From contig VMFS01000003.1 in the NCBI GenBank assembly GCA_007376185.1, positions 25,983 to 89,982 on the forward strand: DNA of 64,000 nt, read 5' to 3'. This DNA comes from Parcubacteria group bacterium Gr01-1014_30. GTDB taxonomy: Bacteria > Patescibacteriota > Minisyncoccia > Minisyncoccales > 2-12-FULL-40-12. This document shows positions 4,375-43,331 of this stretch, piece after piece. The position numbers and the translations under genes are program-made. Each line of letters begins with the position of its first letter. Position 1 is the first letter of the stretch. A model generated the notes under the pieces. It worked only from the letters and a program-made list of their open reading frames with translations, was not told where the DNA came from and did not search any database.

Positions 4375-4832
4375 GCAACAACAAACGCCAAAAGAAAATA
4401 GTTGTGGCGGTTTCTGGCGGTTTTGACCCGGTTCATGCCGGCCACATACAGCTGTTTGAAGAAGCAAAGAAGCTGGGTTCGGAGTTGGTCGTTATTCTAA
4501 ACAACGACAACTGGTTAAGGAAAAAGAAAGGGTACGTTTTTATAAACCAAGACGAGCGCAAAAAAATAGTTGAATCAGTAAAGTGGGTTGACAGAGTTGT
4601 GATTTCAGAGCACGCAGAGGGAGATGAAGACAAAAGCATAAACGGAGAACTTAAGAAAGTGCGTCCCGACATCTTTGCCAACGGCGGCGACAGAACCAAA
4701 GATAACATTCCGGAAGTGGCGGTTTGCAATGAAATAAATTGTAAGATGGTTTTCAACGTGGGCAGAGACGGGAAAGTGCAGTCAAGCTCGTGGCTGTTAA
4801 AAAAGTTTTTGGAAAATGTCAAAGAAGCCTAA
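4368..4832 (+). CDS. Cytidylyltransferase-fold nucleotidyltransferase (RfaE domain II / TagD-like)
   Basis: VAVSGGFDPVHAGHIQLFEEAKKLG carries the HxGH motif. Size is ~150 aa. Confidence 0.7.
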   Translation: MVGNNKRQKKIVVAVSGGFDPVHAGHIQLFEEAKKLGSELVVILNNDNWLRKKKGYVFINQDERKKIVESVKWVDRVVISEHAEGDEDKSINGELKKVRPDIFANGGDRTKDNIPEVAVCNEINCKMVFNVGRDGKVQSSSWLLKKFLENVKEA

Positions 4833-5559
4833 TAATAAAATTGGGATACTAGGTTATGGAGAAGTGGGGCGGGCGATTGCAAAGTTTTATAAAAATCCAA
4901 AAATCAAAGATCTAAATAGAAATGATGATTTGCAGGGAGTTGAGATTTTGCACATATGTATTCCCTGGAGCAAGAGGTTTGTTGAGATTGTTAAAAAAGA
5001 AATCAAAAAAATAAAGCCGCGCCTGACGATAATCCACTCCACGGTTGCGCCGGGGACCACTAAGAAAATCGGTGGCAGGATAGTTCACAGTCCGGTAAGA
5101 GGAGTGCACCCCAACTTATACGAGGGAATCAAGACATTCGTTAAATACATCGGAGCCGACAGCAAGAAAGCAGGTCTTGTGGCAAAGAAACACTTTGAAA
5201 GTTTGGGAATTAAAGCAAAAGTATTCTATCCTTCAGCAACAGCGGAACTTGGAAAGTTACTTGACACAACTTATTACGGCTTGGTTATTGCCTGGTATGG
5301 AGAAATGAAAAAATTGTGCGATAAATACGGCGTTAATTTTGACAACGCCGTAACAGATTTTAATAAAACCTACAACGAAGGGTATGCGAAATTGGGCAGA
5401 AAGAACGTGATAAGGCCAGTTCTTTTTCCGCCAAAAGGCGGAATAAAAGGACATTGTGTTGTGCAAAATACTGAGATCCTCAAAAAATATTTCAATAGCA
5501 AGGCATTAGATTTAATTTTAGAATACAGGCCCAACAAACAACATGGAACAAAAAACTGA
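4816..5559 (+). CDS. NAD(P)-binding Rossmann-fold protein, function unknown
   Basis: N-terminal IGILGYGEVGRAIAKFY (GxGxxG). No further family assignment is possible by eye. Confidence 0.35.
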   Translation: MSKKPNNKIGILGYGEVGRAIAKFYKNPKIKDLNRNDDLQGVEILHICIPWSKRFVEIVKKEIKKIKPRLTIIHSTVAPGTTKKIGGRIVHSPVRGVHPNLYEGIKTFVKYIGADSKKAGLVAKKHFESLGIKAKVFYPSATAELGKLLDTTYYGLVIAWYGEMKKLCDKYGVNFDNAVTDFNKTYNEGYAKLGRKNVIRPVLFPPKGGIKGHCVVQNTEILKKYFNSKALDLILEYRPNKQHGTKN

Positions 5560-6511: not shown

Positions 6512-7977
6512 GCACCTTCAAAGATGTTAAATCGTTTTTGTTTGACAATCTAAGCACGAGACAAACGATCTTTAAAAACACTTTTTGGCTTGGCCTTGCC
6601 GAGGGCTTTGGCAAGCTCTCTAAACTGGTTTTACTTATTTATGTCGCCAAAATCTTGGGAGCGACTGAGTACGGAAAGTTCAGTTTTGCTTTGGCCTTTG
6701 TCGGTTTGTTCGGAGTTGTGGCGAGTTTGGGATTGTCAAGAATAGTTGTGAGAGAGTTGGCGAGCGGCCAAGAAAAGGAAAAAGAAATTTCCTCCCTACT
6801 GTTTTTAAGAATTCTTTTGAGTTTGGTGGCGCTGGCTTTAATTTTGTCTGGCTCTTTCTTTGTTACTCAAGAACCTTTAATTAGAAAAGTAATTTGGATT
6901 TTGGGCCTATACTTTTTACTGGACACCTTTGCTTCTTTCTTAAACTTTTTCTTTCAGGCGCGCCAGAAAATGGAGTACGAATCATGGACGAGGATACTGC
7001 GCGCGCTGGCGCTGACGGGTCTTGGACTTTTCGTGATTTTCAGCTTTCCTTCCTTGGTGAATTTGAGCTACGCTTATCTGGCTGCCAGCTTAATCGCCCT
7101 AATTTTGGTCTTGATTTTTTTTCACATTAAAGTTGCAGCTTTATCTTTAAGTTTTAATAAATCAATTTGGCGGGATTACTTGGCAATGTCTTGGCCCCTG
7201 GCTTTATCGGCATTTTTCGCGATGGTTTACGGCCAAATTGACTCCGTAATTATGGGGTACTTAAATCAACTGACCCAAACCGGCTGGTATAACGCGGCTT
7301 ACAGGGTTGTCGGAGGCGTTTTGATTCCAATAGGCTTGGTTTCCACCAGTTTTTACCCGGCTTTGAGCAGGGCTTTCAAAGAATCGCGGGAAAAATTGCA
7401 AAAGATTTGGAATTATCAGTCAGAACTTATGCTCTTTTTGGCTCTGCCTATGACGGTGGGCGGCATAATTTTGGCCCCAAAAATAATTGATTTTATTTAT
7501 GACCAAACGTACGTTTCTTCGGTTTTGGCGTTTCAAATTTTGATTGTTATGGCAGGCATTGCCTTTTTGCAAAGTCCTTTCAGCAGTATGCTGTTGATTT
7601 TTAACCAGCAAACAAAGTTTTTATGGTCGGGGTTGCTAGGGGCCGCAGTAAACATTGGGCTTAACCTGTTTTTGATTCCTCGTTACAGCTTATACGGAGC
7701 GGCTTTGGCGGCTGTAATTACCGCCGCGGTGGTATTATTTCTTTACGTCTGGTTGACTTTGCGTTTTACTTCGGCAAGAATTTTTAATTTAAGATTTTTG
7801 GGGACAGGACTTTTAGCCGCTCTCTCAACGCTGATAATGTATTTTGTCATTACAATTCCCGGAGTTTACAATCTTAACGTTGTTTTTTCAATAATCATCG
7901 GAGCCCTTATTTATTTTGCGGTATTTTTCGCCGCGAAGTTCACGCTGGGTTACACGAAACCGTTTTTTAGAATATGA
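6502..7977 (+). CDS. Wzx-type polysaccharide flippase (MOP superfamily)
   Basis: ~490 aa with ~12-14 TM helices. N-terminal FKNTFWLGLAEGFGKLSKLVLLIYVAKILG is typical of the polysaccharide biosynthesis protein family. Confidence 0.7.
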   Translation: MPISTFKDVKSFLFDNLSTRQTIFKNTFWLGLAEGFGKLSKLVLLIYVAKILGATEYGKFSFALAFVGLFGVVASLGLSRIVVRELASGQEKEKEISSLLFLRILLSLVALALILSGSFFVTQEPLIRKVIWILGLYFLLDTFASFLNFFFQARQKMEYESWTRILRALALTGLGLFVIFSFPSLVNLSYAYLAASLIALILVLIFFHIKVAALSLSFNKSIWRDYLAMSWPLALSAFFAMVYGQIDSVIMGYLNQLTQTGWYNAAYRVVGGVLIPIGLVSTSFYPALSRAFKESREKLQKIWNYQSELMLFLALPMTVGGIILAPKIIDFIYDQTYVSSVLAFQILIVMAGIAFLQSPFSSMLLIFNQQTKFLWSGLLGAAVNIGLNLFLIPRYSLYGAALAAVITAAVVLFLYVWLTLRFTSARIFNLRFLGTGLLAALSTLIMYFVITIPGVYNLNVVFSIIIGALIYFAVFFAAKFTLGYTKPFFRI

Positions 7978-8780
7978 GCCAAGCAAGTCAACAAAAAATT
8001 GGCGTAGCTGGAGTGGGTTATGTGGGAGGAGCGGTAAAGCATTGGTTTGAAACTCAAGGCCTGCCTTTGTTTTTATATGACAAAGGCAAGGGCGTTGGCT
8101 CTCTTGAGGAATTGAATAAAGCAGAAGTCGTGTTTTTGTGCCTGCCTACGCCTTTTGATGAAAAGAGCGGATTCAGCGACTCGGCTATTTGGGAAGTACT
8201 GAAAGGTCTTGAAGGAGAGAAGGTTGTAGTTGTTAAATCCACTGTTCTGCCCGGCTCCACCGATAAGTACCAGGCAAGCTTTCCCCAGCATAAAATTTTG
8301 TTCAACCCCGAGTTTTTGACCGAGAAAAACGCAAATCAGGACTTCATCAATCCCAAAAGACAACTGGTCGGCTACACAAAAGAGAGCACGCAAGAAGCTG
8401 AAAAAGTTATGGCCTTTTTGCCCAAAGCTCACTTTCAAAGAATTATGGAAGCAAAGGCGGCTGAAATGGTTAAGTATTTTGGGAACTTATTTTTGGCTAA
8501 CAGAGTTATTTTCGCTAACCAAATGTATGATGTATGCGAGAAATTAGGTATTGATTATGACGCGGTCAAAGAAGCAGCAGGCGAGGATTCAAGAGTTGGC
8601 AATAGCCATTTCGACGTGTTTTCAGACGGTTATCGCGGATACTCAAGATCATGCCTGCCAAAGGACACCAAGGCCTTTATACAATTAGCCGAAAGTTTGG
8701 GTTTGAATCCAAGATTGCTTAAAACAATTGACGAGGTTAACGAAAGATTTATTTTTGGCGACAAAAACTATGAATGGTAA
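7974..8780 (+). CDS. UDP-glucose/GDP-mannose dehydrogenase family protein (short form)
   Basis: IGVAGVGYVGGAV NAD motif. FNPEFLTEKNA central motif. No C-terminal UDP-binding domain. Confidence 0.55.
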   Translation: MSQASQQKIGVAGVGYVGGAVKHWFETQGLPLFLYDKGKGVGSLEELNKAEVVFLCLPTPFDEKSGFSDSAIWEVLKGLEGEKVVVVKSTVLPGSTDKYQASFPQHKILFNPEFLTEKNANQDFINPKRQLVGYTKESTQEAEKVMAFLPKAHFQRIMEAKAAEMVKYFGNLFLANRVIFANQMYDVCEKLGIDYDAVKEAAGEDSRVGNSHFDVFSDGYRGYSRSCLPKDTKAFIQLAESLGLNPRLLKTIDEVNERFIFGDKNYEW

Positions 8781-9759
8781 AAAAAATGTTATACTTGTTA
8801 CCGGCGGAGCGGGGTTCATTGGTTCACATTTGTGCGAACGTCTTTTGCAAGAGGGTTATTTTGTGATTTGTCTTGATAACTTCAATACTTTTTACGACCC
8901 GCGCTTGAAAGAAGACAATATTGGCGGGATTAAATCACACTCTCAATTCGTTTTGGTAAGGGGCGATATTTTGGATGCCAGAACTTTAGAAAGCATATTT
9001 GCCAATCACAAAATTGACGAAATTGTACATTTGGCCGCGTTACCAGGAGTTAGAACTTCTTTTTCAGGATCTGGCAGTTACATTAACGTTAATCTGCGAG
9101 GCACTTTGAATTTGCTTAATATGGCAAAAGAGCATAATGTTTCCCAATTCATTTTTTGCTCATCTTCTTCTGTATATGGGAAAGACAGTCAAGTACCTTT
9201 TGTTGAAACAGAAAATAATTTAGTGCCGATTTCACCTTACGGCGTGAGCAAGCTTTCTGCTGAAATTTTGTGCAAAAGTTATCACAAACTTTACGACATC
9301 CCCGTTACGATTTTGCGCATATTTTCAGCTTTCGGGCCGCGGCAAAGGCCTGAATTAGCACTTCACCAGTTTGTCAGGGCGATGAAAAAAGGCCAAGTGA
9401 TTTCAATGTTGGGGGACGGCAGTTCCTCGCGTGATTTCACTTTCGTTGACGACATCGTGGAAGGCATTGTTTTAGCGTTGCAAAAGCGATTCTCTTTTGA
9501 AATTTTCAATCTGGGCAATTCAAAGACCATTCAGTTAAAAGAGCTCATTGATTTGCTGGGAGAGAAACTTGGGATTGAGCCCAAAGTTAAGCAGCTTGCC
9601 GGACACATTGGGGATTTGGATATTACTTATGCCAGTATTGATAAAGCCAAAGAACTTTTAGGTTGGAGCCCTAAAGTTTCTTTTGAAGAAGGTCTTGACA
9701 AGTTTTTGGCGTGGCACAAGGAAAAAGAAGAATTTTTGATTACGTTAAAATATGATTAA
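8770..9759 (+). CDS. NAD-dependent sugar epimerase (UDP-glucuronate 4-epimerase-like)
   Basis: VILVTGGAGFIGSHL. YGVSKLSAE (YxxxK). FGPRQRP. The start was set at the ATG at 8770, overlapping the upstream stop. Confidence 0.7.
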   Translation: MNGKKNVILVTGGAGFIGSHLCERLLQEGYFVICLDNFNTFYDPRLKEDNIGGIKSHSQFVLVRGDILDARTLESIFANHKIDEIVHLAALPGVRTSFSGSGSYINVNLRGTLNLLNMAKEHNVSQFIFCSSSSVYGKDSQVPFVETENNLVPISPYGVSKLSAEILCKSYHKLYDIPVTILRIFSAFGPRQRPELALHQFVRAMKKGQVISMLGDGSSSRDFTFVDDIVEGIVLALQKRFSFEIFNLGNSKTIQLKELIDLLGEKLGIEPKVKQLAGHIGDLDITYASIDKAKELLGWSPKVSFEEGLDKFLAWHKEKEEFLITLKYD

Positions 9760-10657
9760 GCAAATTGCTAAAGAAACAGTTATAACTTGCCTTTTTGGCG
9801 ACCCTGTTGCTCAGAGCGTGTCTCCTTATATGTACGGATATTTTGCCAAAAGAACCGGCATTGAGTATTACAGCCATTTGAAAATTCGCGTGCCCAAAGA
9901 GAAAAAAGGTGAGCTTGGAGAAGCCATCTTGGCGGCAAAGACGTTGGGTTTTGCAGGAATCAACATTACCGTGCCTTACAAAATGGAGGTTATCAAAGAA
10001 CTTGATAAGGTGGATTCGAGAGCCAAAACCATCGGCGCGGTGAATGCCATTTTGGTTAAAGACGGAAAACTAACAGGATACAATACCGACGGCCTTGGAG
10101 CTTTGGCTGCCATGGAGAACAGGTTGCGCAAAATGACTCAAAAGGACAAGGTCGTTGTTTTTGGCGCAGGGGGAGCCTCGAGAGCAATTTTAGGCACGCT
10201 TTTGCCCATTACCAAAAATATTACGGTTCTGCAGAGAAAAGACGACTTTAACTTGGCACATTCTTTAAAAAAATCAATGAAAAAAGTGAATATTCTGCCC
10301 TTAAATTTTGAGAATATCAGCAAATCAGTTATAAGGGCAAACTTTGTGTTAAATGCAACCTCTGTAGGTATGATTCCCAATACAAGGGAGAGCGTTATTT
10401 TGGAAAAGTTGTTCTCGGAGATAAACCGGAAGGCTGCTCTGCGACAGAAATTTTTCTTTGATACTGTTTACAATCCCTATGAAACCAAGTTTTTGTCGCT
10501 TGCCAAAAAATACGGAGCCAAACTCTGCCAGGGGTTGTATATGATGGCGTATCAGGGAGCCGCTTCTTTTGAATTATGGACGGGAAAGAAGGTCGCAAAA
10601 AAAGATGTTGAAGTTGCCTTAAAAATCCTTAAACAAAAAATGGGAGTAAAAGGCTAA
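9752..10657 (+). CDS. Shikimate/quinate dehydrogenase family protein
   Basis: SVSPYMYGYF, GINITVPYK, GAVNAI, GYNTDG and VFGAGGASRAI follow the AroE family order. Confidence 0.75.
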   Translation: MIKQIAKETVITCLFGDPVAQSVSPYMYGYFAKRTGIEYYSHLKIRVPKEKKGELGEAILAAKTLGFAGINITVPYKMEVIKELDKVDSRAKTIGAVNAILVKDGKLTGYNTDGLGALAAMENRLRKMTQKDKVVVFGAGGASRAILGTLLPITKNITVLQRKDDFNLAHSLKKSMKKVNILPLNFENISKSVIRANFVLNATSVGMIPNTRESVILEKLFSEINRKAALRQKFFFDTVYNPYETKFLSLAKKYGAKLCQGLYMMAYQGAASFELWTGKKVAKKDVEVALKILKQKMGVKG

Positions 10658-10664
10658 AAATTGT

Positions 10665-11666
10665 ATGAACACAGAAAATAAAAAAGTAGGTTACGGGGTT
10701 GTGGGCTGCGGCAGAATTTTCCCAGCGCATTATGCGGCGATAAAAAAAGACAGAGATAGCCAACTTATTGCGGTATACGATATCAACTCAGACGCAGTAA
10801 GAGCTGTCAAGGAGAAATTCGGAGTAGAAGCAAAAAATAGTTTGCAAGAGCTGCTTTCTGATCCAAGAGTTGATGTGGTTACAGTATGCACTCCTCATCA
10901 CACACACAAAGATGTTATTTTGAAGGTTATTGAAACCGGGAAGTACTGTTTGTGTGAAAAGCCCATTTGTTTGACAACGAAAGAAGGCGAGGAAATTTTG
11001 ACAAGCCCTCACTACAAAGACAATGTGTTCGTATGCTACCAAAATAGGTTCAATCCGGCCGCGCAATTTTTAATGAAATTGCTTAAAAAAGGAATTTTAG
11101 GGCAAGTTAAGCTGTGTTCTGCGTCTTTAAGGTGGTGGAGAGATAACAGTTATTTTCAGGATTGGCATGGCGATGTGGAGAAAGTCGGTGGCATGGGCTT
11201 TAACCAGGGCGCGCATATTTTAGACATTATGAGACAGGTTTGTGGCATGCCTTTGAGAGTTGATAGGTTAGCTAAGCCAATGCGCGAGAATTCCAACGTG
11301 GACGACGTGCTTTTGGCAAATGTTGTTTTTGATTCAGGCTCGTACGGCAACATAGAGCTGACAACTTTCGCGCCCTACAAGGACTGGGAAGTGTCACTTT
11401 TGGTAGCTGGAGAAAAGGGCACGATAAAAATCGGCGGCGTGTCAGTGAATAAAGTTGAGTTTTTGGACGTCAAAGATGAAGAGTTGATGAAAACCTATCC
11501 CCAATATTCAGAAGAAATAGAAACCGGATACGGCAACAGCCACCCGAGAGTTATTTCAGCTTTAACTGAATTTGTCAAAACCGGCAAAAAGCATCCCAGT
11601 TTAGCTGACGCCAGAGATGGCGTTCAAACAACGGAATTCATTGAAAAAATTTATGAAAGACATTAA
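10665..11666 (+). CDS. Gfo/Idh/MocA family oxidoreductase
   Basis: [36 protein letters not shown] (EKP motif). Confidence 0.75.
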
Positions 11667-12579
11667 CCAACAAGATTTAGAAAAAAATATCCCCTTGGTA
11701 ACAAGGAAAGATTACCAAAGAGAGGTAAAAGCAGGACTCGTTGAGTTCGGAAAAGAAAAAATAGTGGTGATAGCCGGCCCCTGCACCATAGAAAGCAAGA
11801 CGCAAGTAATGGAAATTGCCAAAGCCGTGAAAGATGCGGGAGCTAAAATGCTGCGAGGCGGAGCTTTCAAGCCCTTAACTTTTCCTTATGGCGACCCTTT
11901 GGCTCAGCCAGATTCTAACAGCGGTCAGCCATCTGTTGACCGGCTGAAAGTGTTGACTAAAAAAGAGCAAATGGAGTCAGCCGAAAAAAGGTTGTCTTAT
12001 CTGGCTGAAGCCGGAGCAAAGTATGGGTTGCCAGTGGTGGCGGAAATCATTTACGCCGATTCTGTAGCGATGATGGAAAAGTACGTTGATATGTTTCAAG
12101 TAGGATACCGCCATATGTGGAATATGGATTTGATTGACGCTCTTTCAAAGACCAAAAAGCCATTGCTGCTGAAGCGTCATTACGGAGAAAGTTTGAGGTC
12201 GCTATTGGGCGTGGCAGAGCATTATGAGGCGAGAAACAAGCATAATTTTGCTTTTGTGGAAAGGGGCGTGGCGGTTCCTCACACGCACAATCCGCAATCA
12301 AGAGCAGTTATTGACATTCAGGCGATTCCTGCTTTGAAAGAATTCGCGCCTTCAGTTCCCGTGATTGTTGACCCGAGCCACTCAACTTTTAAGCGGATTT
12401 ATGTGAGTTCTGTGGCAAGGGCAGCCATTGCAGCCGGAGCTGACGGGCTTTTGATTGACATACATCCAGAACCCGAAAAGGCATGGGTTGACCCTTTGCA
12501 GGCGCTGGATTTTAAGGCCTTTGAAAAATTGATGACGGAAATTGAGGGGATAGCAAAAGTTTTGGGAAAGACAATATGA
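11653..12579 (+). CDS. Divergent class I-beta DAHP synthase / KDO8P synthase family aldolase
   Basis: [27 protein letters not shown] and [13 protein letters not shown] are conserved. Canonical KPRTSPY is KPLTFPY, and QIGARNMQN is QVGYRHMWN. There is an extra ~40-aa segment after [10 protein letters not shown]. Confidence 0.65.
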
Positions 12580-12590
12580 GTTTGATGGTA

Positions 12591-12778
12591 GCTCGGCGGT
12601 AAAGTTCCCGTTCGCCGTCCCTCAAAAATCGATCGTCAGCGAAGATGAAGAAGAGATTTATCTCTTCTGACTCCCAGCGAGATTTTGGGGTCTGCGCTCT
12701 CGCGCCGCCATTCCGCCCTCAAGCGGAAACCTTGCTGGCGGCGCTCCGAGAGCCGTCCGGAAACTTCACCGCCTCGCT
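12591..12778. mobile_element. MITE-like GC-rich element with ~20-nt imperfect terminal inverted repeats
   Basis: Ends are gctcggcggtaaagttcccg and ccggaaacttcaccgcctcgc (about 16/20 complementary). Central hairpin agaagaga-ttta-tctcttct. Fills the 12580-12784 intergenic gap. Confidence 0.55.
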
Positions 12779-12784
12779 TAAAAT

Positions 12785-13546
12785 ATGCCTAAAGTATCCA
12801 TCATAGTTAGAACAAAGAACGAAGAAAAGTGGATAGGCGAGTGTTTGAGAGCGGTTTTCGGCCAGAAGTTTAAGGGGTTCGCTGAAACTTCGTCTCCTTT
12901 CACTCCCGCAGGGGCGAGAAGAGAACGAAGTTCTCTGCGAGCGCCTCTCTCTGTTTCACAGAGTTCGGCTTTTGAAGTTGTTGTTGTTGATAACGGGAGC
13001 TTTGACAAAACGTTGGATATCGCGAAAAAATTTCCGGTGAAAATCGTTCATCACAAAGGTAAAGCTTGGTTTCCCGGAAGGTCAATTAACGCCGGAATCA
13101 GAAATTCGTCCGGAAAGTACATTGCTTTGCTTTCGGGACACTGCGTTCCTGTAAACAATAGTTGGCTTAGCGATTTAGTGAGGGAAGTAAAAGCTCCAAA
13201 AATTGCTGGAGTCTACGGCAGGCAACTCCCTTTGCCAGAAAGTTCACCCTTGGACAAGCAGGATTTATTGATGTTTTTCGGCAAAGACCCATTAATTCAA
13301 ACAAAAGGACACTTCTTTTATTTTGACAACGCAAATTGCGTTATCAAAAGGTCGGTTTGGGAGAAAATTCCCTTTGACGCAAAAATTAGGCACAAAGAAA
13401 ACATTATTTGGGGCAGAAAAGTTGTTCAAAGAGGATACAAAATTGTTTACACTCCCAAAGCAAAAGTTTATCACTGGCACGGAATAAATCACGCAGGAAA
13501 TATAAAAAGAGCCAAAGAAGTGGTTAAAGTGCTGGAAAAATTATGA
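12785..13546 (+). CDS. Family 2 glycosyltransferase carrying an in-frame palindromic insert
   Basis: VSIIVRTKNEEKWIGECLRAVFGQ...EVVVVDNGSFDKT is a GT2 N-terminus. A 30-aa foreign segment interrupts it. Confidence 0.75.
   Translation: MPKVSIIVRTKNEEKWIGECLRAVFGQKFKGFAETSSPFTPAGARRERSSLRAPLSVSQSSAFEVVVVDNGSFDKTLDIAKKFPVKIVHHKGKAWFPGRSINAGIRNSSGKYIALLSGHCVPVNNSWLSDLVREVKAPKIAGVYGRQLPLPESSPLDKQDLLMFFGKDPLIQTKGHFFYFDNANCVIKRSVWEKIPFDAKIRHKENIIWGRKVVQRGYKIVYTPKAKVYHWHGINHAGNIKRAKEVVKVLEKL
12881..12970 (+). repeat. In-frame GC-rich palindromic module (90 nt, 30 codons)
   Basis: Encodes AETSSPFTPAGARRERSSLRAPLSVSQSSA between KFKGF and EVVVVDNGS. Arms gaaacttcgtctc / gagaacgaagttctc. Hairpin ctctg-tttca-cagag. 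Confidence 0.7.
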
Positions 13547-14265
13547 ACAAAGAGAACCAAAAGGTGGTGGCAGTAATAATTGCAAGAGGCGGTTCAAAAG
13601 GCGTGCCAAGGAAAAATGTACGGCTTTTGGCAGGCAAACCTTTAATTGCTTACCCCATAATTGCGGCAAAAAATTGTGCTTTGATTAACAGGGTAATAGT
13701 TTCAACAGACAACGACGAGATTGCTTCAGTTGCCAAAGAATGGGGAGGGGAAGTTCCTTTTGTGAGACCTGCGGAATTGGCTGAAGATTTAACCGCGACA
13801 GAGCCGGTTTTGCAGCATGCCATAAAATGGCTTGATGAAAACGAAAAATATCATACGGACATTATGGTGTTTTTGACCGCCACATTTGTTCCGCGAAAGA
13901 AGGGAATTGTGGAAAAAGTCGTTAAACATTTAATTGAACATCCGGAACTGGATTCTGTATTTACAGCAACTCCTACGCACAAAAACTACTGGCGCTTCAA
14001 AGATGGGCAGTGGGTTAGATTGGCTTCAGATATCCCGCATTATGGTTCGCGGCAAACAAAAGAGCCCTTGTGGCGAGAAGATACTCCTTTGGTTTGCGCT
14101 ACAAGAGCTGACTGGATAAGACAGGGAAAAAGAATGGGAGAGAAAGTTTGGATTATTGAGAATGACGCCGAGTTTTCAGTTGACATTGACACTGAATTTG
14201 ATTTCTGGATGGCAGAGGAATACATCAAAAGAGTTAAAAATATTAAAGACTATGAAGGGTTCTAA
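13543..14265 (+). CDS. CMP-sugar (acylneuraminate/ulosonate) cytidylyltransferase family protein
   Basis: AVIIARGGSKGVPRKNVRLLAGKPLIAYPI is the NeuA/CTP_transf_3 N-terminal signature. Confidence 0.75.
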   Translation: MNKENQKVVAVIIARGGSKGVPRKNVRLLAGKPLIAYPIIAAKNCALINRVIVSTDNDEIASVAKEWGGEVPFVRPAELAEDLTATEPVLQHAIKWLDENEKYHTDIMVFLTATFVPRKKGIVEKVVKHLIEHPELDSVFTATPTHKNYWRFKDGQWVRLASDIPHYGSRQTKEPLWREDTPLVCATRADWIRQGKRMGEKVWIIENDAEFSVDIDTEFDFWMAEEYIKRVKNIKDYEGF

Positions 14266-14713
14266 CATTACAAATCAAAATACTTGTCCCGCTTGCGACA
14301 AGTTTCAGCATCCTGAAACGAGTCCGGGCGGAAGAATAAAAGATTACCAACACTGGTTTTTAGAGCATATACCAGAGCCAGTTCCGGTAAAAGGTTGGCT
14401 GGCGCTGAGATTAATAAGGCATGCTGAAGGACTTGTTGGCTTAGACAGCCAAGAAGCTAAAGAACTGGGAGAAATTTTGGAAAATCTGCCAAAGGTCTTA
14501 AAAGAAACAACCGGAGCCGCGCAAATTTATCTCTGTTGTTTTACAGAAGTTGTGCCGCATTTACATTTTCACTTTATTCCCAGATATCCGGAAGAAACCA
14601 AAAGAACCATTGAAGTTTTTGCTCTGCAAAATGAGGTGAAAGCAGGCAAACTGCCGGCGGGTGATCCAAAAGAAGCAGCAACTTTAGCGGAAAGCCTAAA
14701 AAAGAAATTATGA
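14252..14713 (+). CDS. HIT (histidine triad) family protein with N-terminal CxxC
   Basis: VPHLHFHFIPRY is the histidine triad. The start was set at the ATG at 14252, overlapping the upstream stop. Confidence 0.6.
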   Translation: MKGSNITNQNTCPACDKFQHPETSPGGRIKDYQHWFLEHIPEPVPVKGWLALRLIRHAEGLVGLDSQEAKELGEILENLPKVLKETTGAAQIYLCCFTEVVPHLHFHFIPRYPEETKRTIEVFALQNEVKAGKLPAGDPKEAATLAESLKKKL

Positions 14714-17670: not shown

Positions 17671-18341
17671 TAAACCTTTTTGATCATCCATTTACAATCA
17701 CTACCTACAATGCCTTTCGGCGAAGATTTTTAATTGGGAAGGCAAAACTGCAGCGTCGAAATTTTGACGATTATATTTTTGGTTTGTGGGCAAAGAACTT
17801 TGGTGTAGCCCTAGATATTAATTGTTTGAAAAGGTTGGATACTATCTTGCAAAAAATGAAACCACGATCGATTTTTGAATTTGGCTCATGAGTTTCCACG
17901 GCAGTGCTTGCAAAGTATGCAGAAAACAACGATTGCACTATTACCGTAGTCGAAGATAGTTCTACTTATTTGGAGATTATGAAAAAAAATATTTCAACAA
18001 AGTATAAAAGTGATCACTTCACTTTTGTTTATGCGCCGAATCACTACAAGGATTATCTGGAAGCGAGTATCAATCCAGGAACGATGGATTTGGTGGTTAT
18101 CGATGGTCCTGATGGAGAAGAACATCGGCTATACAATAAGTTTTTCTATGAAAAGATTATTGGACCTGAAACTACATGCATTATTGATGATACAGACTAT
18201 TCTGCGCTCGATAGACTTGCGGAGGAGATTGCGCGCAGAAATTCGCTAAAGAAAATTGATTTTCGGGATGCGTTTTATAGTAAAGCACATCAATACTCAA
18301 TTCTCTTCCCGCAAACAGCAAACACCAAAGAAATAATATGA
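17667..18341 (+). pseudogene. Class I methyltransferase-like gene interrupted by a single in-frame TGA (17889-17891)
   Basis: ORFs 17667-17891 and 17904-18341 share one frame. The continuous reading is ...RSIFEFGS-TGA-VSTAVLAKYAE...DLVVIDGPDG. The stop sits where a Gly of an E-x-G-x-G-type SAM motif is expected. Confidence 0.5.
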
Positions 18342-21396: not shown

Positions 21397-22883
21397 AGCA
21401 TCAGCTCAATGTTTTCAAAACGGAGTTAAGGGAAAGAGGTCTATTTTATGCTTTGAAAAAGGCAGTGCTTTATTTATTGCGGCCAATTACCGATTTAATG
21501 AAGACAAGCACATTTTTGGTAAACTTGCGGTATGGAGTTTTGCCTAATCTGTTATCAAAAATCACGTTTCATCAAGATAATCTGCTACTAAAACTCCCGC
21601 AAACCGATTTAGTTCGCGCCGTGCGGAACTTTTGGTATGGAAGTATTCTCGACAGGTTTGTTCTTGAAGGAGAGGAAATTAAAAAAGAAGAAATTTTTAC
21701 TTACGGAGGACCTAACCCCGAATTTAGTTGCCCAATTTGCCAAAAGGCAGAGTGGGTGTCAAGAATCAGACAAGAAAATTTATTTTTAGATCATTCTTGT
21801 CCAAGTTCTGAAAAATGCAGGAAATTGTGCGAAAAGCAAGGCAATGATTTATGGACTCACTTTCACCAGAATTTTGATTTTTCTTTGGGTTGCTCCGCTG
21901 ACTTGCCGGCTCCCAAAGGCGTTTACGTCCTTTTTGGGAAACTGGATATGTTTCACGCTCTTCGTTTGGAACCAATGGAGAGAATTTTTCATCGCCAATT
22001 TGCTTTTGCTTGTCAGCTTGATATAGCAGAAGGGCCTTTTGGCATTGACTGGAAAAAATATGATTTTATGTTTATGTATCTTCCGGGAGCCGTGCCCAAA
22101 TTTAAACGTCCACCAATTCCAGTAATTCTTTTCGCTCACGATTTTTGGCGAGAACCCAAAGCCAGTCAGTGGGTATTGGACTGGTTGGAGCCAGAGGTCT
22201 TTTTAACTACTTACCCAACTCAATTTAAAGAAAATTATCGTTTTCCAAAAAATACCAAAGTTGTATTTCACCCCATGTTTACGTCAAATTTCTTTACCAG
22301 ACCCAATCTTTCTCAAAAATCAATTGATTTGCTTTCAGTGGGGAACACCAAGGGGCCTCTTTATCAAGGAAGGAGAAACTTGAATATGCAATTGCAAAAA
22401 TTTAAAGAACAATACCCCTCATATAAACTTGAATTTTCGCACATTGTGGGCACTCTTAAGCCGAATGAGCAAGAGGGACTTGAATACACCGATTCTCAAG
22501 GCAACCAAATAAGATATTTAAATAAATGGTCAGAATACTTGGGAACTGCAAAATATGTTATTTTCGGCAAAATGAAATATCCTATTTTGGTCGGTAAATA
22601 TTACGAAACCTTGGGGTCTGGCGCCATACCCATTTTCCCTGAAGTGCCCGACTTGAAACTTTTGGGAGTAAAACCCTTTGAACACTATATTCCCTTAGCT
22701 GAAATTGAAGGAAATTCAGAAAGATTAAAATATTTTTTAGATAATTACGAAAAATTCAAGTATATTGGCAAAAATGCGGTAAAATGGTATAAAGATAATT
22801 CAGATAAGATGCTTTTTGCCGGTTTTGAGGGCTCAATTAGAGAAGTTACCAATTATAAATTTCCAAAAAGATTAGTTCGCTGA
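21393..22883 (+). CDS. Hypothetical protein with C-terminal GT-B-like (CgeB-type) region; its stop codon is supplied by a repeat module
   Basis: C-terminal KYYETLGSGAIPIFPEVPDL...FEHYIPL. The TGA at 22881-22883 lies inside gttcgctgaaacttcgtttcctctc. Confidence 0.4.
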   Translation: MKHQLNVFKTELRERGLFYALKKAVLYLLRPITDLMKTSTFLVNLRYGVLPNLLSKITFHQDNLLLKLPQTDLVRAVRNFWYGSILDRFVLEGEEIKKEEIFTYGGPNPEFSCPICQKAEWVSRIRQENLFLDHSCPSSEKCRKLCEKQGNDLWTHFHQNFDFSLGCSADLPAPKGVYVLFGKLDMFHALRLEPMERIFHRQFAFACQLDIAEGPFGIDWKKYDFMFMYLPGAVPKFKRPPIPVILFAHDFWREPKASQWVLDWLEPEVFLTTYPTQFKENYRFPKNTKVVFHPMFTSNFFTRPNLSQKSIDLLSVGNTKGPLYQGRRNLNMQLQKFKEQYPSYKLEFSHIVGTLKPNEQEGLEYTDSQGNQIRYLNKWSEYLGTAKYVIFGKMKYPILVGKYYETLGSGAIPIFPEVPDLKLLGVKPFEHYIPLAEIEGNSERLKYFLDNYEKFKYIGKNAVKWYKDNSDKMLFAGFEGSIREVTNYKFPKRLVR

Positions 22884-22921
22884 AACTTCGTTTCCTCTCA
22901 CGTTTAGTTTCGCTTAGCAAA
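22875..22921 (+). repeat. Copy of the GTTCGCTGAAACTTCGTYTCCT module at a gene end
   Basis: gttcgctgaaacttcgtttcctctc is nearly identical to 12877-12901, which is read through in frame there. Confidence 0.7.
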
Positions 22922-25106: not shown

Positions 25107-25153
25107 CTTCGAAATAGTCAGAAGAGATAAATCTCTTCCTTATTTTCGCTAAC
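25106..25153 (-). repeat. Copy of the AGCGAAGATAAGGAAGAGATTTATCTCTTC hairpin core (reverse orientation)
   Basis: gcttcgaaatagtcagaagagataaatctcttccttattttcgctaac is the reverse complement of the cores at 12635-12681 and 44851-44900. Confidence 0.7.
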
Positions 25154-29265: not shown

Positions 29266-30926
29266 TCAGGATAGGTTTGGCTCAAATAAACTGCACTGTC
29301 GGCGACTTGGAAGGAAATTTCCAAAAAATTAAAGCGTGGATAAAAAAAGCCGAGGATCTTAACCTTGACGTTATCGCTTTTCCTGAGCTTGCAATAACCG
29401 GTTACCCGCCAGAAGACCTTTTGCTCAAACCCAGATTTATCCAAGACAACTTGAAAAAAATAAGAGAGCTAGCACCTTTTGTTAAAAAAACAGCGGCCAT
29501 TGTGGGATTTGTTGATAAAGAAGGAAGTCACATATATAACTCCGCCGCCTTAATCAAAGGAGGAAAAATAGTTGGAGTTTATCGTAAAATGTGTTTGCCA
29601 AACTACGGCGTATTTGACGAAAAGCGTTATTTTCTGCCGGGGCAGAAGCTTTTGGTTTTCAAAATAGGGAAAATTACAGCTGGAATAAATATCTGTGAGG
29701 ACATCTGGGAAGAATCTGGCCCCACAAGGGCGCTGGGCAAAAGGGGGACAAAAATAGTGTTTACCATCAATGGGTCCCCATACCACCAAGGTAAAATTAG
29801 ACAAAGAGAAGAAATAGTTAAAGATCAAGCTAAAGCAAACAAAATTGCAGTAGTTTACATCAATTTGGTAGGTGGCCAAGATGAGTTGGTTTTTGACGGT
29901 CAGAGCATGGTAGTGGATAGTAAGGGTTTAGTGGTCTCGAGAGCCAAAGCGTTTGTGGAAGAGTTGCTGGTGGTGGAAATAGATGCAACGGGTTCTAAAT
30001 TAAAATTTAAAAGTTCAAAATTGGAATCTCTTTTTTTGGAAGAAGAAGTATATAAAGCGTTATTGCTCGGCTTGGGAGATTATGTGAGGAAAAACGGTTT
30101 CAAAAAAGTGGTAGTTGGGCTTTCTGGCGGGATTGATTCATCTTTGGTAGCAACTTTGGCTGTTGACGCTTTGGGCAAAGATAACGTCACTGGAGTAGTT
30201 ATGCCTTCAAGGTTTTCTTCTCTTTTATCAAAAGAAGACGCAGAAAGTTTAGCTAAAAATTTGAGAATTAAATTAATGATAGTTTCTATTGAACCAATTT
30301 TCAAAGCTTACTTGGAAACCTTAAATCCACAAATTCAAGATTTGGAGCAGGATATAGCTATGGAGAACATTCAAGCTAGGATCCGCGGCAACATTTTAAT
30401 GGCTTTTTCCAATAAATTTAACTGGCTGGTTTTGACCACCGGGAACAAATCAGAGATGAGTGTGGGTTATGCCACCCTTTATGGAGATATGGCTGGAGGT
30501 TTCGCGCCCATCAAAGATATTCCCAAAACTTTGGTCTACAAGCTTGCAAGATACAGAAACTCGCTTGCCGAGCCCGTGACGGCGAGGCGGGAGAGGTTAG
30601 CAGAACATTCAGCGACCTCAAGAGTCATACCGGAAAGTGTGCTAGTAAAGGAACCATCGGCCGAGCTGAGGTTAAACCAAAAAGACAGAGATTCTCTGCC
30701 GCCTTACGAAATCTTAGACCCTATCTTGAAGTTATACGTTGAACAGGATTTAGGCGTTGATCGGATTTTGAAGTTGGGTTTTGAGAAAGAGGTTGTTTCA
30801 AAGGTTGCAGGAATGGTTGACAAATCAGAATATAAGAGAAGGCAGTCGCCTCCTGGCATCAAAATCACTCCCAAGGCTTTTGGCAAAGACCGAAGAGTGC
30901 CAATTACCAACAAGTATGGAAAATAA
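29235..30926 (+). CDS. nadE: Glutamine-dependent NAD+ synthetase carrying an in-frame insert
   Basis: N-terminal CN-hydrolase domain (IGLAQINCTVGD, FPELAITGYPPEDL). PP-loop VVGLSGGIDSS. KEPSAEL. Confidence 0.85.
   Translation: MAKNKDNQNLIRIGLAQINCTVGDLEGNFQKIKAWIKKAEDLNLDVIAFPELAITGYPPEDLLLKPRFIQDNLKKIRELAPFVKKTAAIVGFVDKEGSHIYNSAALIKGGKIVGVYRKMCLPNYGVFDEKRYFLPGQKLLVFKIGKITAGINICEDIWEESGPTRALGKRGTKIVFTINGSPYHQGKIRQREEIVKDQAKANKIAVVYINLVGGQDELVFDGQSMVVDSKGLVVSRAKAFVEELLVVEIDATGSKLKFKSSKLESLFLEEEVYKALLLGLGDYVRKNGFKKVVVGLSGGIDSSLVATLAVDALGKDNVTGVVMPSRFSSLLSKEDAESLAKNLRIKLMIVSIEPIFKAYLETLNPQIQDLEQDIAMENIQARIRGNILMAFSNKFNWLVLTTGNKSEMSVGYATLYGDMAGGFAPIKDIPKTLVYKLARYRNSLAEPVTARRERLAEHSATSRVIPESVLVKEPSAELRLNQKDRDSLPPYEILDPILKLYVEQDLGVDRILKLGFEKEVVSKVAGMVDKSEYKRRQSPPGIKITPKAFGKDRRVPITNKYGK
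30561..30620 (+). repeat. In-frame GC-rich palindromic module (~60 nt)
   Basis: Encodes SLAEPVTARRERLAEHSATS between LARYRN and RVIPESV. Stem cgcttgccg / cggcgaggcg. Boundaries are approximate. Confidence 0.5.
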
Positions 30927-32232
30927 ACCTAAACTTTCAATTCTCGGTCTGGGAAAACTAGGAGCACCCATGGTGGCCGCTTTTGCGGCGCGTGGTTTTA
31001 GAGTTATTGGAGTTGACGTAAATGCCGATTTTGTAAGGTTGATAAATGAGGGCAGGTCGTCTGTTTTTGAGCCGCACCTGGAAGATTATTTAAGAGCCAA
31101 TAAATCAATGATATCAGCCACTCAAAATTACGAAGAAGCTGTTTTAAATTCGGATATTACTTTTATTATTGTGCCAACGCCGAGCGACAATAACAATGAT
31201 TTTTCAATGAAGTATGTGGTTGAAGTCGGCAAAAAAATAGGCGAGGCAATTAAGAAAAAGAAAACTTTTCATTTGGTTGTTTTAACAAGTACGGTAACGC
31301 CTTCTTCTACTCAAAGAGAACTTCTACCGGTTTTGGCGAGGAGCTCTCAAAAGCAGTTGGGTCGGGACTTTGGCTTGTGTTACAATCCTGAGTTCATTGC
31401 TTTGGGCGAGGTAATTGAGGACATACTAAACCCAGATTTTGTTTTGATAGGAGAATCCGATAAAAGAAGCGGCGACATTTTGGAAGAATTTTACAAAAAT
31501 GTTTGCCAAAACAACCCTCCGATTAAAAAAATGAGCATTATCAATGCCGAAATCACCAAAATAGCCTTAAACACATACGTGACCACCAAAATTTCTTATG
31601 CCAATATGCTGGCTGAATTGTGCGAAGCAATTCCAGGGGGCAATGTCGACGTTGTCACAGATGCTTTGGGATGCGACACCAGAATCGGGCAAAAGTATTT
31701 AAAAGGCGCCCTTGGCTATATGGGCCCGTGCTTTCCGAGAGACGGACGAGCGTTTATGTATACGGCAAAGAAGTTCGGTATTTCACTTCCCATTACCCAA
31801 GCCACGGATGAGATTAACAGACGGCAGGTGCCGCGGCTGCAAGAAAAAGTTTTAAGGTTGGTGCCAAAAAAAGGAAAAATCGCAGTTTTGGGCGTTGCTT
31901 ACAAGCCCAATACAAACATTATTGAAGAGTCGCAAGGTTTGGAGTTTGCCAAAGTTTTTTCTGAAAAGGAATTCCAAGTTAAAGTTTACGACCCCAAAGC
32001 TATGGCAGAAGCAAAAAAAAGCTTGAATAATGCCTTATTTTCAGCTTCCCTTAAAGAAGCTGTTGGAGAGGCCGACCTTATATTTATTGCCACTCCCTGG
32101 GAAGAATTTAAAAATATGAAGCCAGCCTGGCTAAAACACGGAGTAGTTTTATTCGACTGCTGGCGGATTTTAGACCCCAGAAAGTATGAAGGTATAGCCA
32201 AGTATATTCCTTTGGGCGTTAATGTTCGTTGA
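30916..32232 (+). CDS. UDP-glucose/GDP-mannose (nucleotide-sugar) 6-dehydrogenase family protein
   Basis: LSILGLGKLGAPMV. YNPEFIALGE. CFPRD. C-terminal UDP-binding domain VAVLGVAYKPNT. The start was set at the ATG at 30916. Confidence 0.75.
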   Translation: MENKPKLSILGLGKLGAPMVAAFAARGFRVIGVDVNADFVRLINEGRSSVFEPHLEDYLRANKSMISATQNYEEAVLNSDITFIIVPTPSDNNNDFSMKYVVEVGKKIGEAIKKKKTFHLVVLTSTVTPSSTQRELLPVLARSSQKQLGRDFGLCYNPEFIALGEVIEDILNPDFVLIGESDKRSGDILEEFYKNVCQNNPPIKKMSIINAEITKIALNTYVTTKISYANMLAELCEAIPGGNVDVVTDALGCDTRIGQKYLKGALGYMGPCFPRDGRAFMYTAKKFGISLPITQATDEINRRQVPRLQEKVLRLVPKKGKIAVLGVAYKPNTNIIEESQGLEFAKVFSEKEFQVKVYDPKAMAEAKKSLNNALFSASLKEAVGEADLIFIATPWEEFKNMKPAWLKHGVVLFDCWRILDPRKYEGIAKYIPLGVNVR

Positions 32233-39543: not shown

Positions 39544-39605
39544 GCTCGCTGAGACTTCGTCTCCTCTCGCACACTGCGCTCGCTTGCGTGAGCGAAGATA
39601 AGAAC
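39544..39605 (+). repeat. 62-nt palindromic module flanked by a ~43-47-bp duplication of the GT2 gene start
   Basis: gctcgctgagacttcgtctcctctcgcacactgcgctcgcttgcgtgagcgaagataagaac. Flanks 39515-39543 and 39624-39652 are a 29-nt direct repeat with 1 mismatch. Confidence 0.75.
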
Positions 39606-40598: not shown

Positions 40599-41236
40599 AA
40601 CGATTTTTTGACTTTACAGCAGCTTTGTTTGGGCTGGTTTTGCTTTCGCCCTTGCTCTTACTTTGCGCAATTTTAATTAAAAGAGAATCGCCGGGACCCG
40701 CTTTTTACAGAGGAATCAGAATCGGCAAAGAGGGCAAACCTTTTAGGATTTTTAAGTTCAGGACAATGGTGCCAGATGCAGAAAATCTGGGCGGCCCTTC
40801 AACAGCGGGCGACGACCCGCGGCTTTTGAAAATCGGCAATTTTCTCAAAAAATACCAACTGGACGAGCTGCCGCAACTGATTAACGTTTTGAAAGGCGGT
40901 ATGAGTTTGGTGGGTCCCAGGCCAGACGTGATAGGAATGGTTGAGCTACTAATAGCGGAGGAAAAAAAAATGATTTTGAGTCAGATACCAGGGATGGTTG
41001 ATTTGTCATCCCTTTGGAATTTTAATGAAGGAGAAAGATTGGCTGGTAAAATAGATCCTCATAAAGTATACTTAGAAGAAATATGGCCAACTAAAAAAAG
41101 GTTACAAATATATTATATCCAAAATCGAAGTACTTGGCTTGATATTAGAATTATTTTTAGAGCAGTATTTAAAATATTTGGTCTTAACTGGTTTGCAATA
41201 AAAATTCATGTTGGAGAAGAAGTGTTTAATTTGTAA
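40595..41236 (+). CDS. Initiating polyprenyl-phosphate sugar phosphotransferase (WbaP/PglC bacterial sugar transferase family)
   Basis: RFFDFTAALFGLVLLSPLLLL...ESPGPAFYRGIRIGKEGKPFRIFKFRTM...DELPQLINVLKGGMSLVGPRP. Confidence 0.8.
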   Translation: MKRFFDFTAALFGLVLLSPLLLLCAILIKRESPGPAFYRGIRIGKEGKPFRIFKFRTMVPDAENLGGPSTAGDDPRLLKIGNFLKKYQLDELPQLINVLKGGMSLVGPRPDVIGMVELLIAEEKKMILSQIPGMVDLSSLWNFNEGERLAGKIDPHKVYLEEIWPTKKRLQIYYIQNRSTWLDIRIIFRAVFKIFGLNWFAIKIHVGEEVFNL

Positions 41237-41633
41237 AAAACAATTTTTGGTGAAACCATATCGGTATATAATTGGAAAGTTTTGTTCGCGCGTGTGTTAC
41301 GGTGCTTTTTTAAAGAGTTATATGAAGGGGCTCCGAAATCCATGGTGGAAAGGCGGTAAGAATAAGAGTACGTGGAGATTAAGAGTGTTAGAAAGAGATA
41401 ACTATACCTGCCAAGGATGTGGAATAAATGATTCTAGGGTTCTTACAGTAGACCATATTAGGAATAAGTCATTGCATAAAGATGTGATATATGAAATTAG
41501 TAATGGTGTCACTTTATGCGCTAATTGCCACTTGATCAAAACTAAAGAAGATAAAGAGCTTAGTGCAGTATTCAGTAAAACTTCAAGTAAAACTGTGCGT
41601 AAAACGCTTTTAGGAAGATATGCCAAACTATAA
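41208..41633 (+). CDS. Free-standing HNH endonuclease with N-terminal zinc ribbon
   Basis: RVLERDNYTCQGCG...LTVDHIRNKS...NGVTLCANCH. N-terminal CLICKK...FCSRVC. The region is AT-rich. Confidence 0.7.
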   Translation: MLEKKCLICKKQFLVKPYRYIIGKFCSRVCYGAFLKSYMKGLRNPWWKGGKNKSTWRLRVLERDNYTCQGCGINDSRVLTVDHIRNKSLHKDVIYEISNGVTLCANCHLIKTKEDKELSAVFSKTSSKTVRKTLLGRYAKL

Positions 41634-41910: not shown

Positions 41911-41941
41911 CTTTTGCAACTGGATTTGCTATAGTTAATAT

Positions 41942-43289: not shown

Positions 43290-43331
43290 GGACTTGCGAT
43301 GTCGATAAGATTAAAGTCGATAGATTAAAAA

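Follow-up and report, generated by a model that had tools for sequence, protein, structure and literature searches.

A stretch of 64,000 nucleotides from contig VMFS01000003.1 of Parcubacteria group bacterium Gr01-1014_30 (referred to below as the window, whose own numbering is used for its coordinates) carries a gene cassette with a divergent phosphoenolpyruvate (PEP) aldolase, which is derived from the type Iβ 3-deoxy-7-phosphoheptulonate synthases (DAHPS). From the sequences of its genes and their conserved arrangement, we consider it probable that this cassette makes and uses a 3-deoxy-2-ulosonic (keto-deoxy acidic) sugar, activated with cytidine monophosphate (CMP), for a surface glycan. 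The first-pass annotation of this DNA had suggested a PEP-dependent ulosonic-acid synthase which feeds a CMP-sugar by a route involving neither NeuB nor KdsA, and comparative genomics lends support to this suggestion, as the aldolases form a discrete clade and are linked to cytidylyltransferase (CT) genes. The CMP-activated keto-deoxy acidic sugars known so far, i.e. 3-deoxy-D-manno-octulosonic acid (Kdo), sialic, legionaminic and pseudaminic acids and Kdn, are all made by synthases of the KdsA or NeuB type. PEP-dependent synthesis of an ulosonic acid with subsequent CMP activation is in itself already known, and it is most likely the DAHPS-derived version of the synthase which is new.

All genes of the cassette lie on the + strand. 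A shikimate-dehydrogenase-family oxidoreductase (SDH; 9752–10657, 301 aa, Pfam Shikimate_dh_N/SDH_C) is followed by a Gfo/Idh/MocA NAD(P) oxidoreductase (Gfo; 10665–11666, 333 aa, Pfam GFO_IDH_MocA and C domains), by the aldolase (11617–12579, Pfam DAHP_synth_1, E 1.5e-42), whose true start is probably at 11653 because its homologues begin at MKDI, by a family 2 glycosyltransferase (GT2; 12785–13546, 253 aa, Pfam Glycos_transf_2) and by a NeuA/PseF-like CMP-ulosonic-acid synthetase, the CT (13543–14265, 240 aa, Pfam CTP_transf_3). SDH, Gfo, aldolase and CT had been described as four adjacent genes; all four are present as open reading frames (ORFs) on this strand, but the GT2 gene and a spacer of 205 nt separate the aldolase from the CT.

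The aldolase and its relatives

The aldolase was said to have retained the PEP-aldolase scaffold with altered DAHPS motifs, and the motifs quoted at that time (KPLTFPY, GYRHMWN) are all present. It is 33–44% identical to the type Iβ DAH7P synthases of P. furiosus (1ZCO), A. pernix (1VS1) and T. maritima (1RZM), with which it shares the TIM-barrel fold, the N-terminal β-hairpin region, the metal site and the PEP site. The metal ligands C56, H255, D281 and D292 correspond to C31, H201, E227 and D238 of 1ZCO, the third of these positions being Asp in the window and Glu in most homologues, and the PEP ligands K85, R165, K186 and R216 correspond to K60, R115, K136 and R166. An IHPEP motif is also present. 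The AlphaFold (AF2) model of the protein (pLDDT 87) superimposes on 1zco, 1vs1 and 1rzm with TM scores of 0.76–0.90, and more poorly on KDO8PS.

The type Iβ enzymes differ, however, in several motifs as well as in their aro context, which is replaced by a CMP-sugar/glycan context in the case of the aldolase family. KPRTSPY has become KPLTFPY, with L87 and F89 in the places of R62 and S64 of P. furiosus DAH7PS; according to the structural literature on DAHPS, the Arg and Ser/Thr of this motif bind the phosphate of erythrose-4-phosphate (E4P). Further changes with respect to 1ZCO are GARNMQN to GYRHMWN (GYRHM[F/W]N in the family), KRG to KRHYGES, and an insertion of 3 aa in the ERG...PHTHN loop which gives rise to PHTHN. 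An additional insertion, thought earlier to comprise about 40 aa, amounts to 25 aa in our alignments. It follows KPLTFPYG within the family-specific β2-α2 loop region (11893–11979, + strand), where residues 93–121 face residues 68–71 of P. furiosus DAH7PS, and it is modelled at a pLDDT of 86–90 as an extended loop running into a lengthened α2 helix.

Among the models considered, only the superfamily-level Pfam model PF00793 recognises the aldolase. Its scores lie below the cut-offs of all curated NCBIfam models for DAHPS (231.9 against 267.75 for TIGR01361; 263.4 against 335 and 195 against 279 for the other two, NF006421 and NF009239) and for KDO8PS (TIGR01362, 85.3 against 314; NF003543, 91.6 against 242), as well as below the gathering score of the NeuB model in Pfam (PF03102, 18.2 against 22.1), and a SAF domain is absent. 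Members of the family, which measure about 308 aa and share 60–88% identity, are annotated as 3-deoxy-7-phosphoheptulonate synthase by both NCBI and JGI. The 120 nearest database clusters (305–328 aa, 66–88% identical) bear source names from Patescibacteria, Deltaproteobacteria and Omnitrophica, and KP[L/M]TFPY is found in every one of these 120 homologues, as opposed to KPRTSPY in canonical representatives. In a library clustered at 50% identity, a single full-length sequence at 494 bits stands for the whole family; the next match scores 283 bits, and canonical DAHPS no more than 240. Judged by sequence, the aldolase is a member of a discrete and constrained clade separate from bona fide DAHPS, which agrees with the earlier idea of a neofunctionalised enzyme. 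The curated family libraries (Pfam, NCBIfam) hold no model for this family, and neither the family nor the cassette was found described in the searchable full-text literature. New CMP-ulosonic acids have been reported in the SugarBase preprint, where no such genes were linked to them.

KP(L/C/A)TFP, KRH and PHTH are shared by a wider clade (P0122, P0125, P0128–P0130 and P0134), whose members lack the β2-α2 insert. The distant member P0122 shows the gene order CT-CT-Gfo-aldolase-SDH-NeuB; the contigs of P0125 and P0134 are too short to show the gene context. The family of the window aldolase itself was not found in IMG/VR, and among the PLSDB plasmids and the GenBank phages only canonical DAHPS of less than 40% identity were matched, so that these searches yielded no cultured carrier; a contig scan with a single-sequence query returned only two family loci together with canonical DAHPS loci. 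In addition, P0128 of the wider clade is encoded on a viral contig (L058/L059:3984–11175 and L061, IMGVR_UViG_3300002460_000088) in a mini-cassette which contains a CT/GT2 fusion, a KduI-like protein, the aldolase (268 aa, GYRHMFN, no insert), a CT and methyltransferases. This contig of up to 38.5 kb (copies of 21–38 kb) also carries Peptidase_M15_3, KilA-N and DnaB_C proteins and many ORFans, and the identical P0128 protein occurs on nineteen contigs.

Conserved neighbourhoods and accessory enzymes

In total, 48 non-redundant loci encoding aldolases of the family were collected. Upstream sequence of 2.2 kb or more is available for 31 of them. In 12 of these 31, SDH and Gfo lie directly 5' of the aldolase on the same strand, and the other 19 have an AP_endonuc_2 TIM-barrel protein (IolO-like) and a cupin of the KduI/IolB family in the same upstream position, so that none of the 31 lacks both accessory pairs. 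On the downstream side, where 1.5 kb or more is available for 32 loci, a CT-family gene directly follows the aldolase in 27; among the remaining five, four have a CT elsewhere within 7 kb, and L030 has one by BLAST labelling. The four-gene block on which the first-pass annotation was based therefore holds with regard to the CT, which is present in essentially all loci, but its two dehydrogenases are exchanged for the IolO-like and IolB-like pair in the majority of them. The co-location goes far beyond chance, since dozens of independent contigs show this arrangement again.

Most cassettes possess a stand-alone CT (~240 aa) plus a GT2-CT fusion (~455 aa). A WaaA-like glycosyltransferase of family GT30 follows the CT in six loci (L009, L010, L015, L022, L025 and L035, five of them non-redundant), a NanM-like sugar O-methyltransferase is added in several cassettes, DegT aminotransferases adjoin several, and further additions in some loci are NeuB, NeuC-like, DHDPS-like, hexapeptide acyltransferase and B12-radical-SAM genes. 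The annotated neighbourhoods of the cassettes contained neither KdsD nor KdsC, no phosphatase of another kind and no further aro gene; the remaining shikimate-pathway genes were absent from more than 40 related loci. A genuine aro locus, L006, in which an SDH adjoins two canonical DAHPS, differs from the cassettes in its layout. NeuB was observed in or beside many cassettes (L011:9056–12242, L034, L056:8643–9668, L018, L025, L029 and L032), often accompanied by a NeuC-like 2-epimerase as well as a DHDPS/NanA-like protein. It may be, therefore, that two different ulosonic acids occur in some of the glycans, and this might be the reason for the two CT domains.

That the CT is of the NeuA type, as was originally proposed, is supported by its match to Pfam CTP_transf_3 (PF02348, 75.7 against 22.6) and by its similarity to NeuA structures (9ftb, E 3e-28; with 6ifd and 1qwj, E 3e-28 to 8e-16). 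It remains below equivalog cut-offs (PseF TIGR03584, 142.6 against 205.7; KdsB models at no more than 40 bits) and has orthologues of 49–61% identity in L003, L009 and L013, where they are the stand-alone CTs that follow the aldolase. The GT2 of the window, which overlaps this CT by 4 nt, corresponds to the N-terminal half of the GT2-CT fusions of other cassettes (446–470 aa, e.g. L003:10947–13053), with 41–49% identity to their first ~250 aa. Its nearest NCBIfam models, MftF and an arsenosugar glycosyltransferase, are all far sub-cut-off.

With regard to the accessory enzymes, the SDH of the window scores above the aroE equivalog cut-off (TIGR00507, 212.5 against 200.2), is closest to the AroE structure 1nvt (E 3.9e-46; 7cok, E 3e-26) and keeps all substrate and catalytic residues (SxS, K, N, NTDG, Y and Q), the carboxylate-binding ones included. 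In L003, L014 and L023, too, its orthologue invariably stands before Gfo and the aldolase, a context that speaks against activity on 3-dehydroshikimate within the shikimate pathway. We take the AroE score and residues as a mark of family membership and not of function, and we propose that the protein acts as a ketoreductase or dehydrogenase on a carboxylated six-membered-ring sugar, as 3-keto-pyranuronate and 3-dehydroshikimate would have an equal spacing between carboxylate and ketone on the ring. A 5-ketofructose reductase of Gluconobacter (7COK) belongs to the SDH family and acts on a keto-sugar, indicating that the SDH fold can be a sugar ketoreductase; it differs in that the window SDH is nearer to true AroE (1NVT) and retains the carboxylate-binding residues. 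Cassettes of other phyla contain a second SDH lineage of ~345 aa (L001:8931–9980, L002, L004, L011, L024, L031, L034, L038 and L056:7612–8649) with an insertion of ~50 aa in the NAD(P) domain, in which the NRS/NRT motif is kept and the first Ser is changed to Ala. As it occupies the same slot of the cassette at only ~25% identity to the window SDH, the SDH fold appears to have been recruited twice, independently.

The Gfo protein, with Pfam scores of 97.8, 70.8 and 69.3 bits for its N-terminal Rossmann and C-terminal α/β domains (above cut-offs), has IolG (109 against 355), UDP-GlcNAc 3-dehydrogenase, levoglucosan dehydrogenase and glycoside 3-dehydrogenases as its nearest NCBIfam models, all of them sub-cut-off, and we propose it as a sugar ring-hydroxyl dehydrogenase of the C3 type. 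In the alternative pair, the TIM-barrel protein scores 297 with the IolO model, just short of the cut-off at 300, and has T. maritima TM0416 as its solved relative (E 2e-51), and the cupin comes close to that of IolB, the 5-deoxy-glucuronate isomerase (192 against 205). IolO is a 5-keto-L-gluconate/D-tagaturonate epimerase (PMC12632266). The Thermotoga-type IolO (TM0416) and IolB, to which the pair is thus close to equivalog level, belong to a catabolic iol/uxa operon, in contrast to the biosynthetic CMP-sugar cassettes described here, and the window itself has SDH and Gfo.

The aldolases found with either pair are not distinguishable from each other. In a neighbour-joining tree, those from dehydrogenase loci are mixed with those from isomerase loci, their mean pairwise identity is 69.4% and 69.3% within each locus type and 68.5% between the two, and no alignment column discriminates them. 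This suggests that they probably catalyse the same reaction and that the two pairs are interchangeable, performing the same net redox-neutral conversion.

Proposed pathway and alternative explanations

We suggest that the pathway would begin with SDH and Gfo acting together in a net redox-neutral manner, one of them forming a ketone by oxidation of a ring hydroxyl and its partner reducing this ketone from the opposite face, so that a common sugar would be converted into a rarer aldose acceptor. In other loci, the IolO-like keto-uronate epimerase and the IolB/KduI-like uronate isomerase would do the same job: an isomerase-epimerase-isomerase sequence would lead to a net 3-epimerisation of a uronate, and a ring-hydroxyl dehydrogenase with a ketoreductase would give an equal result. 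The aldolase, judging from its fold and its catalytic residues, would then use its Cys-His-Glu/Asp-Asp metal site and its Lys/Arg PEP site to condense PEP with the acceptor aldehyde under release of phosphate. Family membership and synteny suggest that the NeuA/PseF-like CT would convert the product with CTP into a CMP-sugar, and the context of the genes that the GT2 would move the sugar onto a glycan, a WaaA-like GT30 taking its place or acting additionally in some genomes.

The flanking dehydrogenases had at first been thought to tailor the product, which is probably not the case. According to the corresponding alternative, the aldolase uses a neutral or amino aldose, and the SDH-like protein and Gfo afterwards tailor the pyranose ulosonic acid before CMP activation, for example into an epimer through oxidation and reduction at C4/C5. 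Pyranose 3-deoxy-ulosonic acids may well be topological mimics of quinate and shikimate, the window SDH keeps the shikimate-binding residues with the carboxylate-binding Ser/Tyr among them, and DegT aminotransferases stand beside several cassettes, all of which would fit this order of events. We nevertheless consider it unlikely, since it would have to apply also to the 19 of 31 loci in which an IolO-like 3-epimerase is paired with an IolB-like aldose-ketose isomerase and whose aldolases are indistinguishable from those of the other loci. Epimerase and isomerase need a free α-hydroxy-carbonyl, which is absent from a 2-keto-3-deoxy acid, and this points to an action of the accessory enzymes before the condensation, on the acceptor. 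The accessory pairs thus probably prepare the acceptor sugar.

This acceptor is probably not phosphorylated, because Arg and Ser of KPRTSPY are replaced by Leu and Phe and because the cassettes have no phosphatase; Pfam scans of the larger ORFs of the window likewise revealed no phosphatase or KdsD. The same features bear on the possibility that the cassette is a non-orthologous replacement of the Kdo pathway, in which the aldolase would make Kdo-8-P or Kdo for activation as CMP-Kdo. DAHPS and KDO8PS are homologous PEP aldolases, the logic of aldol condensation, CMP activation and transfer is shared with KdsA and CMP-Kdo, and the WaaA-like genes behind the CT in six loci resemble Kdo transferases. 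However, the aldolase is only ~20% identical to KDO8P synthase and has lost the phosphate-binding Arg that KPRT shares with KANRS, the cassettes contain neither KdsD nor KdsC nor KdsB, their CT is NeuA/PseF-like with low scores against the KdsB models, and the accessory pairs have no part in Kdo synthesis. Moreover, the cassette is found in Patescibacteria, which are not known to have lipopolysaccharide. A replacement of this kind is therefore very unlikely. There are also similarities to the NeuB/NeuA, PseF and LegF pathways, in that PEP and a probably non-phosphorylated aldose would give an ulosonic acid, the CT is of the NeuA family and acceptor-preparing enzymes are encoded alongside, and NeuB genes co-occur in several cassettes; but the aldolase is not a NeuB and has no SAF domain, and NeuC or PseB-H/LegB-G are unlike the SDH/Gfo or IolO/IolB-like enzymes.

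As to the nature of the acceptor, an acid sugar such as a hexuronate is hinted at by the near-matches to IolO and IolB, by the carboxylate-binding residues kept in the SDH, by the precedent of 7cok as an SDH-family keto-sugar reductase and by the similarity of the gene product encoded just 5' of the SDH to probable UDP-glucuronate 4-epimerases. The carboxylate might replace the phosphate as an anionic handle and the product might be a dicarboxylic 'ulosaric' acid, this being the least certain part of our proposal. In its most specific form, which we put forward as a tentative and rather doubtful possibility, the family would be a fourth lineage of α-carboxyketose synthases (after DAHPS, KDO8PS and NeuB) that condenses PEP with a rare hexuronate, supplied by either of the two accessory pairs, to yield a CMP-activated, nine-carbon dicarboxylic 'nonulosaric' acid, decorating the surfaces of Patescibacteria, Desulfobacterota and Omnitrophota and being also phage-encoded. 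We know of no previous report of nonulosaric acids as a class of sugars. For 3-deoxy-lyxo-heptulosaric acid (Dha) as the product, neither supporting nor opposing evidence was found.

A merely coincidental position of a true DAHP synthase and an AroE, serving the shikimate pathway or a shikimate-derived metabolite, inside a glycan island appears hardly credible. It would agree with the score of the SDH above the aroE cut-off, with the type Iβ DAHPS being the best named relatives of the aldolase, and with the annotation of family members as DAHP synthases. Against this, the aldolase stays below all DAHPS equivalog cut-offs, has lost the Arg for the E4P phosphate and falls into a clade of its own, and the synteny with CT and GT is kept across phyla and in phage, never together with aroB, aroD, aroK, aroA or aroC. 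The SDH can be replaced by non-aro enzymes, the real aro operon of L006 looks different, and, in agreement with the first-pass annotation, no further shikimate-pathway gene was detected in the window when practically every ORF of 120 aa or more was scanned with Pfam. Equally improbable is that the CMP-activated product leads to a small molecule or to the head group of a lipid instead of serving as a glycan building block, since in the window and in other genomes the cassettes are surrounded by Wzy_C, flippase, Bac_transf and several GT genes, even though the nearest, far sub-cut-off models of the GT2 act on small molecules.

Several observations weigh against the synthesis of a CMP-activated ulosonic acid from a non-phosphorylated hexuronate as outlined above. 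The aldolase family has acquired conserved basic residues (in GYRH, KRHY, PHTHN and TFKR), and these new His, Lys and Arg residues could have rebuilt a phosphate site; phosphatases, for their part, need not cluster. No candidate enzyme was found for the supply of free hexuronate, i.e. its release from UDP-uronate. By its score above the aroE cut-off and its complete set of shikimate-binding residues, the window SDH is indistinguishable from a true AroE by sequence. The stand-alone CTs of the 'long-SDH' loci are only ~30% identical to that of the window, and as the CT sublineages differ between locus types, the products may differ between sublineages as well. The tree in which the aldolases of both locus types interleave is without bootstrap. 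Finally, the C-terminal CT domain is cleanly missing from the GT2 of the window (tblastn against the L003 fusion), which in addition contains an in-frame insertion of 93 nt (12881–12973; 31 aa, AETSSPFTPAGARRERSSLRAPLSVSQSSAF) that is absent from all homologues, so that the window cassette may be partly degenerate.

The surrounding island and implications of the cassette

As the first-pass annotation had stated, the genes are embedded in a glycosylation island. According to the Pfam scan of the 64-kb window, this island extends from base 43 to ~41,000 and resumes at 45–50 kb, with Wzy_C, flippases, GTs, SDR (short-chain dehydrogenase/reductase) epimerases, DegT, UDP-glucose dehydrogenase (UGDH) and Bac_transf as its families. 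Most of it is flanked by two large O-antigen-ligase-like proteins (Wzy_C; 43–2145 and 48269–50461), both of which end in TPR repeats at the C-terminus. Rfam and tRNA scans of the window gave zero matches.

Between 7974 and 14713, every gene is on the + strand and starts and stops mostly overlap or nearly abut. The first of these genes (7974–8780, + strand, 268 aa) encodes a short UDP-glucose/NDP-sugar dehydrogenase-like protein with Pfam UDPG_MGDP_dh and UDPG_MGDP_dh_N only, i.e. without the C-terminal UDP-binding domain (TIGR03026, 154 against 189.8, profile positions 73–295 of 413), of which L003 has an orthologue of 61% identity in the equivalent position. A second short paralogue, also without this domain, is located at 4816–5559 (247 aa); both paralogues are shared by L003, and the window contains a full-length UGDH in addition (30781–32232). 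The following SDR epimerase/dehydratase (8728–9759, + strand, Pfam Epimerase/GDP_Man_Dehyd), the stop of which overlaps the start of the SDH gene, has its best solved relatives in 6zl6–6zll (6zl6, E 1.3e-64) and MoeE5 (6kv9, E 8e-46), which are probably UDP-glucuronate 4-epimerases; its L003 orthologue (61% identity) is likewise immediately 5' of the SDH. Downstream of the CT, a small HIT-like protein (14252–14713, + strand) is only weakly matched by Pfam HIT (E 0.0064, below cut-off), gives zero matches in NCBIfam and is conserved in the closest cassette, L003/L027, where its orthologue (56% identity) likewise comes directly behind the CT.

The gap between aldolase and GT2 is filled by a GC-rich (56%), hairpin-forming intergenic element of 205 nt (12580–12784, no strand assigned) with a minimum free energy of -84.8 kcal/mol. 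Short GC-rich repeats of this hairpin-forming kind (54–56% against 42%) are found in intergenic gaps, and a 93-nt copy sits inside the GT2 gene. Partial copies of the 12580–12784 repeat lie at 17864–17878, 22875–22901, 25116–25138, 39546–39565 and 44844–44883. Beyond the main part of the island, at 41208–43832, short ORFs lie separately behind an HNH endonuclease gene; they match Transketolase_N (201 aa) and Transket_pyr (166 aa) only in part and could be a split or decayed transketolase.

If the proposed role of the cassette is correct, a third, DAHP-synthase-derived lineage would constitute a new entry point to a chemically and immunologically important class of sugars, and the cassette is small enough for its reconstitution in E. 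coli. It would also account for many genes which are mis-annotated as '3-deoxy-7-phosphoheptulonate synthase' and 'shikimate dehydrogenase', mis-annotations that inflate the predicted capacity of uncultivated bacteria with reduced genomes for aromatic amino acid synthesis. The exchange of a dehydrogenase pair for an isomerase/epimerase pair would be a clear case of non-orthologous displacement, and the SDH fold would have been recruited into sugar metabolism twice independently. The presence of a mini-cassette of the wider clade on a phage contig suggests in addition a role in the modification of the host surface or of the virion.

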